Part shown: one piece after another, positions 6,159 through 59,376 of the stretch
Numbering within the stretch: position 1 is the first letter of the stretch
Layout of the letters: the number at the start of each line of letters is the position of its first letter
DNA from: Candidatus Spongiisociaceae bacterium
Lineage (GTDB): Bacteria > Actinomycetota > Acidimicrobiia > Spongiisociales > Spongiisociaceae
Length of the DNA: 64,000 nt
Assembly: GCA_965219685.1 (NCBI GenBank)
Contig: CBDCOH010000002.1
Coordinates: 1,184,001-1,248,000 of the forward strand
Direction: 5' to 3'
Program-made: the position numbers and the translations under genes
Notes under the pieces: model-generated
Seen by the model: only the letters and a program-made list of their open reading frames with translations
The model's database searches: none
Told to the model about the DNA's origin: nothing

Positions 6159-6758
6159 CTACCGGCGGTCAATCCGATTCGATGCCCTCGATGGCACGTA
6201 CAGGCGGTGGGTGACGATGTAGTTGCGCACCGGCTCCCGGACCAGGAACCGCAGGCTGTGGCCGATGGCGGCCCGTCTCCGGAGTTCGGTGCCCGAGATG
6301 GCCAGGGCCGGAACGTCCAGCCAGTGGAGCGACTCTCCCACCGCCTCCTGCACCGTAGCCCTGGCGGTTCCCGTTCGGGGAGCGACCGCGATGCGGGCCC
6401 GTTCCAGCACCTCCTCGGACCGGTGCCATGACCGGATGCGGGCCGCGGCATCCGCTCCCAGGATCAAGGTTGGTTTCACCCCCTCCAGATCCATGAGGGT
6501 GTCGATCGTGTACGAGGACCCGGGCCGCGCGATCTCACTGTTGTCAGCCTTCATATAGGGGATGTCCGAGGTAGCGGCGAGTGTCATCCCCCATCGGTGT
6601 CTCGCGGCCGTTACCGGCGTTCCCGCCTTCTGCCAGGGGATTCCGGCGGGTAGGAACCTTACGTGGTCGAGATCGAGCTGTCTGAACGCGGCTTCGGCCA
6701 CCACCATGTGGGCGACATGGGGTGGATCGAACGTTCCTCCGAGCAAGCCGACCCGCAT
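6159..6758 (-). CDS. nadD: Nicotinate-nucleotide adenylyltransferase
   Basis: GGTFDPPHVAH, SYTIDTL, ILGAD, ISGTELR. Confidence 0.95.
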   Translation of the reverse strand: MRVGLLGGTFDPPHVAHMVVAEAAFRQLDLDHVRFLPAGIPWQKAGTPVTAARHRWGMTLAATSDIPYMKADNSEIARPGSSYTIDTLMDLEGVKPTLILGADAAARIRSWHRSEEVLERARIAVAPRTGTARATVQEAVGESLHWLDVPALAISGTELRRRAAIGHSLRFLVREPVRNYIVTHRLYVPSRASNRIDRR

Positions 6759-6944
6759 GCGCAGAGGCTACCGGTCGAAGCCCCGGTCCCGTTCGTGGCT
6801 GTCTTCGTCCTGCCCGGCATCGGGGTCACCGAAGTCTCCATTGCGTGGATCCAGGGAGGTGCCATCGGTGCCGGAAGACGCCCGACACCCCAGGGAGCGG
6901 GAAGACAGACCCCGAGAACGCGAAAAACACTCATACTTGTAGGG

Positions 6945-7125
6945 TCCTCCTCGGCTGGGGGCCGGGTCTGACCCACGCGAAAACTGGCGTTTGGTGCCTT
7001 TCCCACGATCTGTCGACCTGGCCCTAGCCGGGAGCCCTGAACCGGGGAGCGGGGTGACCTTATAGGAGCTTCGACTTCTCCACCTTGAGTGTTCTGTCCG
7101 CCGCTCTGCCCGGCTCAGGGGGACT
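6945..7125 (+). ncRNA. Putative IS110 bridge RNA (target-binding loop plus donor-binding loop)
   Basis: Guides ACGCGAAAA (6975-6983), CCACGAT (7003-7009), ATAGGAGC (7062-7069) and TGAGTGTT (7086-7093) match target and donor halves and lie in loops closed by stems (GGTCTGAC/GTCGACC; CCCTGA-CCGGG-GAGCGG/CCGCTC-CCCGG-TCAGGG); RNA boundaries approximate. Confidence 0.8.
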
Positions 7126-7158
7126 TGGAATTGTAGGCAGCTAGCGGGAGGTGGGCAC

Positions 7159-8394
7159 ATGGAAGAGCAAGATCGAGCCGATGGCATGGTTGTGGTCGGT
7201 GGGGTGGATACGCATCGGGATACCCATGTTGGGGCGGTGGTCGATGCCGCGGGTCGGCTGTTGGGATCGGCCCAGTTCCGGGCTGATGCCACTGGCTATG
7301 GGCAACTGGTTGCCTGGATGGAGTCGTGGGGTCGGGTCAGCCGGGTCGGGGTGGAAGGGACTGGCAGCTACGGTGCCGGCCTCGCCCGTCACCTCGGCGG
7401 GGCCGACATAGAGGTGGTGGAGGTGAACCGTCCCAACCGGCAGCTACGCCGCCGGCGGGGCAAGGACGACCACACCGACGCCGAAGCAGCAGCTCGGGCA
7501 GCTCTGAATGGTGAAGCAACCGCGGTGCCCAAGTCCGGCGACGGGCCGGTCGAGTGGATACGGATGCTGTCAGTAACCCGCCGCTCCGCCGTCAAGGCCC
7601 GCACCCAGGCCGCCAACCAACTCCATGCCTTGGTGGTTGGTGCCCCAGAGCCGATAAAGGACCAGCTAAAGGGCATGAAACTCAGAGCCCGCGTCCGGGT
7701 GTGCGCCCGGTTCCGACCCAGCGGAGAGTCCTCTGTCAGCTACGCTAAGCAGGCTCTCCGCCGCCTGGCCCGCCGCTACCAGGTCCTCGACACCGAGATC
7801 GCAGAGCTCGATGTCGAGATCCGCCGTCTCTGCGCCAAGGCCAACCCGGCCCTGTTGGCCGCCAACGGTGTCGGCCCCGACACAGCCGCCAAGCTGCTGG
7901 TCGCAGCCGGCGACAATCCCGAGCGTATGAAATCGGAACGATCCTTCGCTGCGCTGTGCGGTGTCAGCCCTGTGCAGGCGTCGTCTGGGCGAAGGGTTCG
8001 GCATCGTCTCAGCCGGGGCGGCAACCGCCAAGCAAACAGCGCCCTGTGGCGGATCGCTACCAACCGGATGCGTACCGACGCCGCCACCAAAGCCTACGCG
8101 GCACGACGCAAGGCCGAGGGGAAGAAGAGAAAGGAGATCATCCGCTGCCTCAAGCGGCACATCGCCCGAGAAACCTACCGTCTCCTCACCAACCCGCCAC
8201 CAACCCCGAACTGCGCCCGGCTACGCAGCCGACGTCAACAACGCGGAATCACCGTCACCGAGGCCGCCCGAACTCTCGGAACCTACCCCAGCCGCATCTC
8301 AGCACTCGAGCTCGGCCGAGACCACAACCACCAACTCGCTACCCGATACCAGAGGTGGCTCCGAACTCCCGAACCGGCCCCGTCCCCGACTTGA
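7159..8394 (+). CDS. IS110-family DEDD recombinase/transposase with an additional C-terminal HTH
   Basis: GGVDTH, GVEGTGSYG, KDDHTDA, GVSPVQASSG (catalytic Ser), RGGNRQANSAL; RBS GGGAGG upstream. Confidence 0.95.
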   Translation: MEEQDRADGMVVVGGVDTHRDTHVGAVVDAAGRLLGSAQFRADATGYGQLVAWMESWGRVSRVGVEGTGSYGAGLARHLGGADIEVVEVNRPNRQLRRRRGKDDHTDAEAAARAALNGEATAVPKSGDGPVEWIRMLSVTRRSAVKARTQAANQLHALVVGAPEPIKDQLKGMKLRARVRVCARFRPSGESSVSYAKQALRRLARRYQVLDTEIAELDVEIRRLCAKANPALLAANGVGPDTAAKLLVAAGDNPERMKSERSFAALCGVSPVQASSGRRVRHRLSRGGNRQANSALWRIATNRMRTDAATKAYAARRKAEGKKRKEIIRCLKRHIARETYRLLTNPPPTPNCARLRSRRQQRGITVTEAARTLGTYPSRISALELGRDHNHQLATRYQRWLRTPEPAPSPT

Positions 8395-8696
8395 CAAACA
8401 TAGGAGCATCGTGGAGATCGGCTTCCACACAGGGCCCGCCCCCACCGCCACCTCCTCGAATCCCGGACGCGTCCTGCCGCCTCCCCCCTACGGGTCGCTC
8501 CGGGTGCATGATCCCTGCCCGGTCCGTTCGGTACCGCCTTCGGACCGTTGGTGTCTACGGCTACTTACCAGTATGCGACGGCGCTGTGACACGGGCCCAT
8601 CGAGAAGCTTGAAACCTCGGAGGGTTGCGAGCGCGGAGGGTGTGCCGTTCTCGGACGGAGATGCTGGCCGCGAGGAACTGAACACCCGCCAACCCT

Positions 8697-9215
8697 CTAA
8701 GGGTCGACCGGCACCAGGCGTAGACCCATCGACGGGCTCCGGGGCTGGCAGCCCAGGACGGTCTCCGGATCGACGTAGATCCCCCCGATTCGTACCGAGA
8801 AATGCAGATCGTCGTGGATTGGTCCCGGACTCAGGAGTCCCAGCCGGGTTCCGCGCTCAACGCGTTGGCCTCTTGTCACCGTGGGCCCGCCCAGATACGA
8901 GTAGCTCGTCACGAGCTGTCCACCGTGATCGACGCTGACCACCAGGTTGCCGGCGACCTCGCCCGCGAAGGCAACGCGGCCCCTGGCAGCCGCTCCGGCG
9001 TATCCGTCCGAGTCGCCGGAATAGTCGATCCCCCAGTGGCCCTCGTATCCGGGTCCGGGGTCGAACCGGTGGGTGGTCACGCCATCGCTGGGTGGATCGA
9101 GACCGACGCAGGATAGGTTCCCTCCTCCGGTTGTCGGCAGCGCAGCCGGGAACTGACCTACCGACATCGGTAGCGCGATGAGGATGCCCAGGATCGTCGG
9201 GCAGAGTGAAGCCAT
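8697..9215 (-). CDS. M23 family metallopeptidase, secreted
   Basis: Signal peptide, HWGID, LHFSVRIGGIYVDP; the usual YxH His appears as YSYL; RBS AAGGAG. Confidence 0.8.
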   Translation of the reverse strand: MASLCPTILGILIALPMSVGQFPAALPTTGGGNLSCVGLDPPSDGVTTHRFDPGPGYEGHWGIDYSGDSDGYAGAAARGRVAFAGEVAGNLVVSVDHGGQLVTSYSYLGGPTVTRGQRVERGTRLGLLSPGPIHDDLHFSVRIGGIYVDPETVLGCQPRSPSMGLRLVPVDP

Positions 9216-24517: not shown

Positions 24518-24708
24518 TGTCACGGTCACGCTGCATACTGGTGAGTAGCCGTAAACACCACCGGTCCGTTCACGGTACCGATCGGACCGGGGCGGGGATC
24601 ATCTTGTTGGGTGCCGGGGATGGCCGGGACGCGTGCGGAGACTTCGGAGGTGGCGGTCGGGGGCGGGCCCGCCGGAGGGGTCCGGTCGGGGGTTTTTCGC
24701 GTTCTCGG
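24518..24708 (+). repeat. Dispersed ~190-bp element, copy 2 (candidate sRNA unit: promoter, hairpins, terminator); weaker similarity extends ~24455-24778
   Basis: TGTCA(24518)-N11-CATACT(24534), hairpin CCGGTCCG/CGGACCGG, GGAGGTGGCGGTCGGGGG, hairpin plus TTTTT. Confidence 0.9.
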
Positions 24709-24891
24709 TTGCGCCGGGTTGCCTGGTGGGATGGCCGGTACGTCCCGGAAACCTGCAACGAGTCCAGGAACCAGGACACCCAGGAGGTGCCGGCGGAACC
24801 GTACGTGACTTACTCGTTCGCCGGGCGAACATTGTTGACCCGGCGTCCGGCACGAGGCAGCCGGCGGGATCCGCCCCTACGCCGCTCCCTC

Positions 24892-50913: not shown

Positions 50914-51657
50914 GCCACTAGCCATTCCCATTGTAGTCTCACGCCCACCGAACCGGCGAGCACCTTGTCCAGCTTCCCCCCGTTGCCCAACTCTCGCATG
51001 TTGAATCTGCATTCCAACTCGGCCAGGTATCGCCACAGATGCTTCGCACTCATGTAGTGGTAGACGCCCATGTAGGACCGTTTCAGGATGCCCCACACTG
51101 ACTCAATGCCGTTCGTGTGGACGATCCCCCGCACATATTCGCCCTTGCCGTGTTCAACCCAAAACTGGCGCAACCCCATCTTCCTGTAGGACGGCTCGCC
51201 GTCGGTGAACAGGGGAGACGGGAACGCCACTTTCTGCTGGACGGCTTGGTTGAGGCTGTCGAAGGTTGTGTCGTTCACGTCGAGGAAGGCAACCTGGCCG
51301 GTCTTGCGATGCCGGAAACCGATCACGACCTGCTTGTTGGCCCGCCAGCCGCCGCCTACCTCTTCCCGCAGTTTCTTGCGCCGGTCGGCGTGCATCCTGC
51401 CCAGCTTCCCGCCCACAAAGGTCTCATCGACTTCCACCGGGTAGCCGTCGTCAAATGTTGTGTCATTCATGGCTGCTGCTACCTGTCGGAGACGGTGAAG
51501 CATGTACCATGCTGTCTTGTGGCTGACGCCGATCTGCGATTGGAGACGCTGGGCTGCAACCCCTTTGGGGTTGTCCATCCACATCCAGATGGCTATGAAC
51601 CACTTTGAACCGCCCCGGTTACCCCGGAGACTCGATTAGTTGGGAGATAATGGAGTC

Positions 51658-52898
<1,241 letters not shown>

Positions 52899-53198
52899 AA
52901 CACTCTCCGGCAAACCCGGGGCGGTTCACTTCCGTAGCGGTAGACGTGATTCCTCGAACACTGTCCCTTTGCGAACGGAGAATTGTCTGCGGCAGTCTCC
53001 GCATTTGTAGATGGGCCGTGTGCGGATGCGGTAGATGCGTTTGCTGTCGCAGTCCGTCCAGGCACATTCCAGGCCATCCGGCCATCGCAACTGCTCTAGA
53101 TGCGCTCTGCATGATTCCTCGTCGGGGAAGGCTTCGAGTAGGTCGTAGAGGCTGTCGTATTGCACCGTTTGGCTCCGTGGGCGGGGGATGGGCCTAAC

Positions 53199-59106: not shown

Positions 59107-59176
59107 CGTCCTGATTCCTCGATTCCCTCCAGACGCCCGGACGTACAGCTCGTCCAACCCGCCAGCTCCGCGATTA

Positions 59177-59376
59177 CCGAGAACGCGAAAAACCCCCGAC
59201 CGGACCCCTCCGGTGGGCCCACCCCCGACCGCCACCTCCGAAGTCTTCGAACGCGTCTAGCCATCTTCCCGTGGGAAGTCGGCTCCGACACATGATCCCC
59301 GCCCCGGTCCGTTCGGCACCGTAAACGGACCGGTGGTGCTTACGGCTGATAACCAGTATGCAACGGGGCTGTGACA
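59177..59376 (-). repeat. Dispersed ~190-bp element, copy 3; weaker similarity extends ~59108-59440
   Basis: Near-identical blocks to copy 2; TGTCA-N11-CATACT at 59376-59355. Confidence 0.9.

Follow-up and report, generated by a model that had tools for sequence, protein, structure and literature searches.

IS621, one of the closest known systems, provides the vocabulary for the locus considered here. Its left guides read like the top strand and extend as far as the core; its right guides are complementary and have the core as their starting point. Two further nucleotides (nt) on the 3' side of each right guide form the handshake guides, whose pairing with positions 6-7 of the other DNA has to await top-strand exchange; cutting of the top strands takes place 3' of the core (all according to the text of PMC11208158). 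The left and right target guides (LTG and RTG) overlap by two bases in IS621, and bridge RNAs are predicted in 85.7% of IS110 elements (text of PMC11208160). As far as these descriptions extend, IS621, IS622 (ISCro4) and ISPpu10 all have a CT core. Here we describe an IS110-family insertion sequence (IS) at 6928-8409 of a window of 64,000 nt from a Candidatus Spongiisociaceae bacterium, the window being the whole stretch of DNA analysed. We are confident that this is an intact, probably recently inserted IS110 element with a two-module bridge RNA and an IS621-like mechanism, exchanging strands at a single C. Given the prediction for most IS110 elements, a bridge RNA was to be expected. No description of a one-nucleotide core was found in the literature text searched, the figures and supplements of which may show non-CT cores or list the clade.

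As their published texts present them, IS621, IS622 and ISPpu10 are like the window element in having a recombinase with DEDD/RuvC-like and Tnp domains, and an RNA in a long left end with the target loop (LTG, RTG) preceding the donor loop (left and right donor guides, LDG and RDG) and the guides in the same senses. The placement of the handshake guides (putative in the window element), a promoter (here predicted) split between the right end (RE, -35) and the left end (LE, -10), and a repeated sequence as target are likewise common to them. There are differences at the core: the CT dinucleotide of IS621 is one C in the window element, the LTG comprises 9+1 nt rather than 7+2, and the putative handshake guides, unlike those of IS621, stand directly next to the one core base. 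The two RNAs are not connected by any Rfam or other model.

ISEc21, compared by description only, is alike in other respects: neither circles nor transposition are obtained without its seekRNA region, an upstream non-coding stretch; the match to the bottom strand comes before that to the top strand; insertion makes no multi-base duplication; and the target lies inside another IS, in conserved codons of IS3-family transposase genes (text of PMC11187229). It differs in its choice of site, since the window element targets an ISL3-family terminal region and a host repeat, not a coding motif. IS4321 and IS5075 belong to the IS1111 group, with the RNA downstream of the gene and subterminal inverted repeats, whereas the window element has the IS110-group layout.

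Element limits and the shared base

The limits of the element are set by an empty allele. Four public contig sets were aligned on 6500-8800, and one of them (X5, from a study other than that of X1, the likely source) contains a contig of 4287 nt (record 9) that matches 6500-6927 save for 2 differences and 8410-8800 save for 1 difference and 1 gap. Along this contig 6927 is joined directly to 8410, skipping 1482 nt (ends CA..AT), with one ambiguous letter fitting either side. In this strain, whose flanks are ~99.5% identical, the empty site reads ...GAGAACGCGAAAAA-C-GTGGAGATCGG..., in short ...GCGAAAAA-C-GTGGAG... or ACGCGAAAAA-C-GTGGAG. Because the joint has one letter in common, the element is 6928-8409 and the sole shared base is a C (6928 = 8410). 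A left end of 230 non-coding nt (6929-7158) and a right end of 15 nt (8395-8409) result, with one shared base. This is the IS110-group layout: a long LE, a short RE, and neither terminal inverted repeats nor a multi-base target duplication. The bases flanking the core differ between the partners, A-C-G in the target and T-C-A in the donor.

Other copies bear out the register. Five more full-length copies exist in the genome (B 94%, C 91% and D, E and F ~70% identical), and when the targets of B and C are rebuilt around one C, both give gap-free alignments to unoccupied paralogous sites: that of B (...GAGGCTTCGCGAAAAC|GTGGGGTAGGGCTGCTGTTGTCGGTG...) to C2:3147714 and C2:3147628, that of C to C2:105057. 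For the related locus L043 the rebuilt target, CCTCGTAA-C-ATGACC, is the common paralogous empty site, present in 4 of the 11 places listed (L062, L064, L066, L068). Further left junctions of the form LT-C-ACTCAT, where LT is the left target, occur in solo left-end remnants (L012, L015, L019) and in loose ends in X1 and X7. The right core is C in all 20 correctly read elements of a table of 25, as well as in 5/5 loci read of the Cryobacterium type. A script had misplaced the junctions of L042, L084 (right), L097 and several other loci, most of which were repaired in this table; those of L042, L056 (right), L054, L055 and L057 (right) were read by eye.

The initial annotation had already proposed one shared nucleotide, and a single base it is; the base had been taken, however, as A (6926/8408), with limits 2 nt away from those given by the X5 contig. 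That model has ends at 6927 and 8407, four cognate matches of 7-9 nt, an empty site ACGCGAAAATCGTGG and a circle junction ATAGGAGCAACACTCATACT (ATAGGAGC-A-ACACTCA, ...GGAGCAACACTC...); the corrected junction would be ...ATAGGAGCAT-C-ACTCATACT. The matches in the integrated copy are longest in the A register, the 17-nt promoter spacing holds for its junction as well, and the orthologous empty site in G007, a genome of the same genus with flanks 85-87% identical to the window, reads ACGCGAAAATCGTAGG, exactly as predicted. In length the G007 site equals the true empty allele; substitutions would explain the difference in sequence, that flank being 87% identical. A core A is contradicted by the X5 allele, which reads AAAAA-C-GTGG, by the LTGs of B, C, L039 and L043, which fall out of register with their flanks, and by L043, whose target rebuilt in this way matches 0/11 of the listed paralogous sites. 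The genome holds no site of the form CGCGAAA(A)(A)TCGTGG (a 3-5 A pattern), as against four unoccupied copies of CGCGAAAACGTGG. Taken together, we regard a core A as very improbable.

Further candidate registers were rejected. A core A with the circle GGAGC-A-ACACTC or GGAGC-A-CACTC fell with the X5 empty-allele contig; a core CA with the right end at ...ATAGGAG would give a promoter spacer of 14; and the window copy does not fit a core CA whose right end is ...GGAGCAT.

A subtler alternative is that the bridge RNA acts with an IS621-like two-nucleotide stagger, of which only the second core position is shared (C, like T9 of IS621) while the first differs, donor T against target A, the T/A heteroduplex always being resolved toward the top strand. 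This would agree with the published text on IS621, where the second core base is nearly invariant, the first is less conserved and the top-strand cut lies 3' of the core. It would also suit the Cryobacterium-type loci L050, L091 and L092, which have T on the left and C on the right. In these the target base is retained in the left junction and the donor base in the right, a pattern that fits a cut 3' of the C-position base. Random resolution would nevertheless give both versions, whereas 13/13 close elements show the top-strand version at both junctions, and LTG and RTG overlap by 1 nt as against 2 in the IS621 text. The bottom-strand cut cannot be placed by sequence alone. We consider such a stagger rather unlikely, and take a non-CT core of one base as the probable state of the window element.

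Empty sites for copies D and F were sought in five genomes of the same genus; the flank of D was matched only in its far part, a candidate tRNA gene included, and that of F nowhere. Copy D adjoins a stretch conserved in the genus (L034/L036, L007:1020-1104) with a candidate tRNA gene, and the flank beyond is not conserved, which suggests an island. In L042 (2440-2520) and L039 (downstream of 2442) the final ~34 nt of the right end recur, in tandem or nearby, together with the target sequence next to them; these second copies are possibly products of aberrant or half-site recombination.

Guides in the left end

The four matches reported in the initial annotation are present as described: ACGCGAAAA at 6975-6983 and 6918-6926, CCACGAT at 7003-7009 against ATCGTGG at 8408-8414, ATAGGAGC at 7062-7069 and 8400-8407, and TGAGTGTT at 7086-7093 against AACACTCA at 6926-6933. 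The order LTG, RTG, LDG, RDG is likewise that of IS621, and the layout is of the IS621 type, with two internal loops that each hold a top-strand-sense left guide and a complementary right guide, one for the target and one for the donor. A CT core covered by all four guides, as in IS621, is absent, the C alone being shared. What changes is the reading of the right-hand matches of 7 and 8 nt as pure guides: their outer letters, AT in RTG and AA in RDG, would be handshake pairings with the non-cognate partner. Integrated junctions are products of recombination, so guide and handshake pairs are both visible in them, and the matches seen by eye are longer for that reason. Reading guides by eye thus calls for caution, as the handshake pairs included in integrated junctions mislead about element limits. 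Features are collected in Table 1.

Table 1. Observed and predicted features of the IS110 element and its insertion site (window coordinates)
Feature	Position	Strand	Basis or remark
Left target (LT) CGCGAAAAA, last 9 host nt before the crossover	6919..6927	+	Within one copy of the dispersed repeat; X5 contig
IS110-family insertion sequence	6928..8409	+	1482 bp including one core copy; equivalently 6929-8410; X5 contig
Left core copy, single C	6928	+	X5 joint; left junctions of close relatives all LT-C-ACTCAT
-10 half CATACT of the predicted circle-junction promoter	6932..6937	+	Sequence
Target-binding module: base stem, internal loop with LTG and RTG, short apical stem	6958..7025	+	Comparative fold, compensatory base-stem changes
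Putative left target guide (LTG) ACGCGAAAA-C: 9 nt in LT sense plus core	6975..6984	+	Pairs with LT and core
Putative right target guide (RTG) CCCAC + G7007	7002..7007	+	CCCAC pairs with right target (RT) GTGGG (here GTGGA, 4/5); G7007 pairs with core C
Putative target-loop handshake guide AU	7008..7009	+	Complementary to the element's last two nt, AT (8408-8409); IS621 rule
Donor-binding module: base stem, loop with LDG and RDG	7049..7104	+	Comparative fold
Putative left donor guide (LDG) AUAGGAGC-U-U-C	7062..7072	+	Against right end ATAGGAGC-A-T-C, one mismatch
Putative right donor guide (RDG) UGAGU + G7091	7086..7091	+	UGAGU pairs with ACTCA (6929-6933); G7091 pairs with core C
Putative donor-loop handshake guide UU	7092..7093	+	Complementary to the last two target nt, AA (6926-6927)
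Recombinase gene, 411 aa: DEDD/RuvC-like domain, Tnp domain, extra C-terminal helix-turn-helix	7159..8394	+	Pfam matches
-35 half TTGACA of the predicted junction promoter, overlapping the stop codon	8391..8396	+	Sequence
Right end / left donor ATAGGAGCAT	8400..8409	+	X5 contig and table of 25 elements
Right core C (8410) and right target GTGGA (8411-8415)	8410..8415	+	X5 contig and table of 25 elements
Remainder of the interrupted host repeat: hairpin GTGGA..TCCAC, then GGGCCCGCCCCC-ACCGCCACCTCC... ACGCGTCC	8410..8486	+	

Covariation of guides and targets across homologues had been put forward as a check on the assignment, and the target guides do covary with the insertion sites across relatives. 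Seven specificities were compared (B, F, L043, L041, L044, L042 and L048), with one chosen representative each and guides defined by the scaffold. Cognate pairs of guide and flank match at a mean of 11/14 positions, against 4.05/14 for non-cognate pairs (n = 42, maximum 9); L042 and L048, partly mis-extracted by the script, score low. Among 5040 permutations just one, the identity, reaches the observed sum. RTG covaries with the right flank in every specificity. The LTG matches the LT of copies B and C at 8/9 positions plus the core. Copies A (the window element), B and C share one pair of target-loop sequences and D, E and F another, and their flanks differ accordingly. On the donor side, the LDG ATAGGAGCTTC aligns against the donor ATAGGAGCATC.

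At the putative handshake positions, the target-loop dinucleotide is AT against a donor AT in 18 of the 20 elements with a correctly read right end, the exceptions being L098 (GT, wobble possible) and L097 (CT); in L054 the RNA has GT and the right end, read by eye, has GT too. When the rows are grouped, by our own judgement, into 11 specificities, the donor-loop dinucleotide agrees fully with the last two LT nt in 7 of them and half in the other 4.

The RNA itself is best seen by comparison. When 13 left ends are aligned, the guide segments vary within an invariant scaffold (CTGAC, GCCTT, GATCTGTCG, GTGAC, ATAGGAG, CTGTCC). Their consensus fold places the guide segments in two stem and internal-loop modules, as the initial annotation had read from the single sequence, with 33 pairs, 7 of them showing compensatory changes, in both base stems; the donor base-stem pairs 179/246 and 181/244 have both sides changed in 6/13 sequences each. 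A contig of a diverged relative in X7 has 101 nt between LTG and LDG (window 6974-7076) replaced by 24 other letters; this variant may be a deletion derivative of the bridge-RNA region lacking RTG.

One could argue instead that the complementarities have no function and the recombinase itself picks the sites, for example through its extra helix-turn-helix, the left end being a mere leader. The extra domain does occur clade-wide, and the single-sequence fold gives a weak thermodynamic signal, both as such a model would have it. Elements whose recombinases are 70-90% identical nonetheless occupy unrelated sites, each in line with its loop sequences; the loop segments vary on an invariant scaffold; and the published texts on IS621 and ISEc21 report experimental proof that the RNA is required. 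Selection by the protein alone is barely credible here.

Joining the ends as predicted would create a promoter. The TTGACA at 8391-8396 and the CATACT at 6932-6937, spaced by 17 nt in the junction originally proposed, keep TTGACA-N17-CATACT in the corrected junction. Among 13 sliced junctions (TTGACA-like / 17 / CATA[CA]T) ten have a spacer of 17 and two, those of L048 and L056, one of 18; that of L042 was mislocated by the script.

With IS621 as the guide, a mechanism can be sketched. The 230-nt left end would encode a bridge RNA with a target loop followed by a donor loop. The recombinase would excise the element as a circle, whose RE-LE junction (...TTGACA-N17-CATACT...) could act as the promoter for this RNA. 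The RNA would pair with both strands of the donor junction and of the target, and strands would be exchanged next to the single shared C. The handshake dinucleotides, AU and UU, would find their complement, the final two nt of the opposite partner, once exchange has taken place and not before. The target-loop guides are predicted to specify CGCGAAAA-C-GTGGG, and the window copy would have entered a look-alike site in a repeat, with an extra A in LT and one mismatch in RT.

Several observations weigh against this reading and should be set beside it. The window LTG matches LT at only 4/9 positions in register, and 9/9 requires a slip or bulge of 1 nt; the left flank of L087, too, matches its own LTG at only 4/9. 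L042, L048 and L056 have CC at the left junction, so that their register is ambiguous, and the G041 paralogue L067, one of the 11 places listed for L043, has 3 extra nt at the site. To these the G007 site can be added. The covariation of the handshake positions rests on few independent changes (groups AA, GA and AC). Folded singly, 6927-7158 has z = -1.05, with 30/200 shuffles folding at least as well. Rfam gave 0 matches at E <= 1 over 6500-8900, and a scan of the whole window at the gathering threshold returned nothing at the element. No circle junction turned up in the four contig sets, which, being assembled, could show neither starts, ends and strand nor rare circle junctions; none of the sequencing runs listed for the stretch is an RNA run.

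One genome and its relatives amount to a natural reprogramming series, with at least seven specificities on an invariant scaffold and with occupied, empty and near-cognate sites, from which guide, core and handshake positions can be read without experiment. A non-CT core of one base is what this series points to.

The recombinase and its clade

The window element is, as the initial annotation had recognised, a real IS110-family insertion sequence, of the IS110 group. Its gene product has both family domains: PF01548 over residues 15-159 at E 4.8e-23 (82.1 bits, where the cut-off is 29) and PF02371, the C-terminal Tnp domain, at E 1.2e-20, well above the cut-off. The motifs GVDTH, VEGTG and DDHTD, at residues 15, 65 and 103, are those that we take to carry the catalytic residues. 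An SSG aligns with the ESG of ISCro4, and its serine, Ser276, is the putative nucleophile.

The best solved relatives, the transposases of ISCro4 and IS621, are distant (E ~1e-10 over the Tnp part), and their solved chains, of 328 and 341 aa, do not reach the C-terminal helix-turn-helix (HTH) of the 411-aa window protein. That domain is visible as weak HTH_3/HTH_31 matches (E ~5e-5, residues ~353-388, window 8210-8325). Among the matches listed, 120 clusters of related proteins of ~409 aa are 69-90% identical, and many have the same precomputed HTH matches in Pfam; the C-terminal HTH is thus a feature of the clade.

It is conceivable, though we put it a little below even, that this large clade (~409 aa, C-terminal HTH) has a one-nucleotide core throughout, with handshake guides abutting it, and that the identity of the core is possibly dispensable. 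The core base may differ between donor and target, since elements with U-bearing LTGs have T or C at the left junction and C at the right, where a G-U wobble would suffice. If this holds, programmable bridge recombination could be less constrained in sequence than it is in IS621 and IS622.

Partial copies in the window genome (G000) cluster at C2:3.02-3.13 Mb (L002-L011, L013-L017, L019), where full, partial and solo-end copies of both IS110 subgroups are nested with ISL3- and IS3-type ends. At L019 a left-end remnant of 21 nt stands at a perfect LT-C site and is cut off by an IS3-type end.

Targets in other insertion sequences and in a host repeat

The initial annotation had the guides programmed against a dispersed repeat. 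The window copy does sit in that repeat; the perfect 14-nt target, CGCGAAAA-C-GTGGG, lies in a terminal region of ISL3-family elements. Its 13-mer CGCGAAAACGTGG has four unoccupied exact copies in the genome besides the occupied ones at B and C, and the perfect sites stand 30-45 nt past the 3' end of an ISL3-family transposase gene. One such gene (L076:1544-2011) matches PF01610 at E 4e-29, and copy B lies 43 nt from the end of an ISL3-type transposase gene. This position just past the 3' ends of ISL3 transposase genes marks the terminal region of ISL3-family ISs as the cognate target. The open reading frames beside sites 3147628 and 3147714 (L077:1197-2069 and L077:779-1516) have no Pfam match, and around copies C, D and F a distance of 1.6 kb contains neither an ISL3 nor an IS3 reading frame.

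Against the guides, the window site has five A in LT where four are specified, and GTGGA rather than GTGGG (4/5) in RT; the window copy thus reads as a near-cognate insertion into the dispersed repeat. The 9-mer ACGCGAAAA occurs 4 times in the window against 0.20 expected, a count reached in 0/100 shuffles. Its other two copies (24694 on the minus and 59183 on the plus strand) lie in the repeat and continue ...AAAAAC-CCCCG; both read ACGCGAAAAAC-CCCCG, in keeping with the earlier observation that repeat copies 2 and 3 match the left guide only. Genome-wide, on C2, a loose pattern finds 103 matches and a stricter one 46 copies of the repeat. It starts GAGAACGCGAAAA(A)C, and its commonest form has 5 A and then C (21/103).

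The repeat is ~90 nt long and runs from GAGAACGCGAAAA(A)C through a variable C-rich hairpin and GGGCCCNCCCCC-ACCGCCACCTCC to an end near ACGCGT. Its copies in the window are at 24620-24710 (-), at 59165-59262 (+) and, interrupted, at 6912-6927 plus 8410-8486. It matches no Rfam family. Read on the opposite strand it gives a hairpin followed by G-TTTTT, which resembles an intrinsic terminator.

The subgroup of copies D-F is aimed elsewhere. Its rebuilt target, GAGTCTCCGGGGAAA-C-CGGGGCGGTTCA, resembles an IS3-family terminal repeat; copy E is at the end of an IS3-family element, and an IS3-type end also occurs in the window at ~52900-52929, beside orfA (HTH_Tnp_1), orfB (rve) and an ALIL pseudoknot. 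The elements of the series aim at the ends, or at conserved codons, of other ISs; targeting of one IS by another has already been seen for ISEc21 and IS4321.

In the IS3-family element of the window, at 51640-52929, an orfA bearing HTH_Tnp_1 and an orfB bearing rve are accompanied by the ALIL frameshift pseudoknot (RF01497, 104 bits). The right end of this element, ...CTCTCCGGCAAACCCGGGGCGGTTCA, is repeated at least 12 times in the genome and resembles the target of the D/E/F subgroup.

ISEc21-like siting is found among distant relatives of the window element, 44-52% identical: the Cryobacterium-type loci L050, L051, L052, L091, L092 and L105, together with L054, L055, L057, L095 and L098. By eye, the sequences around them read as codons for catalytic motifs, conserved in the transposase genes of the IS3 family (L050, L055 and L095 are examples). 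The LTG of these relatives carries U at the core position. In the Cryobacterium type, T stands at the left junction of L050, L091 and L092 and C at that of L051, L052 and L105, and the right junction is C in the five of the six loci that were read.

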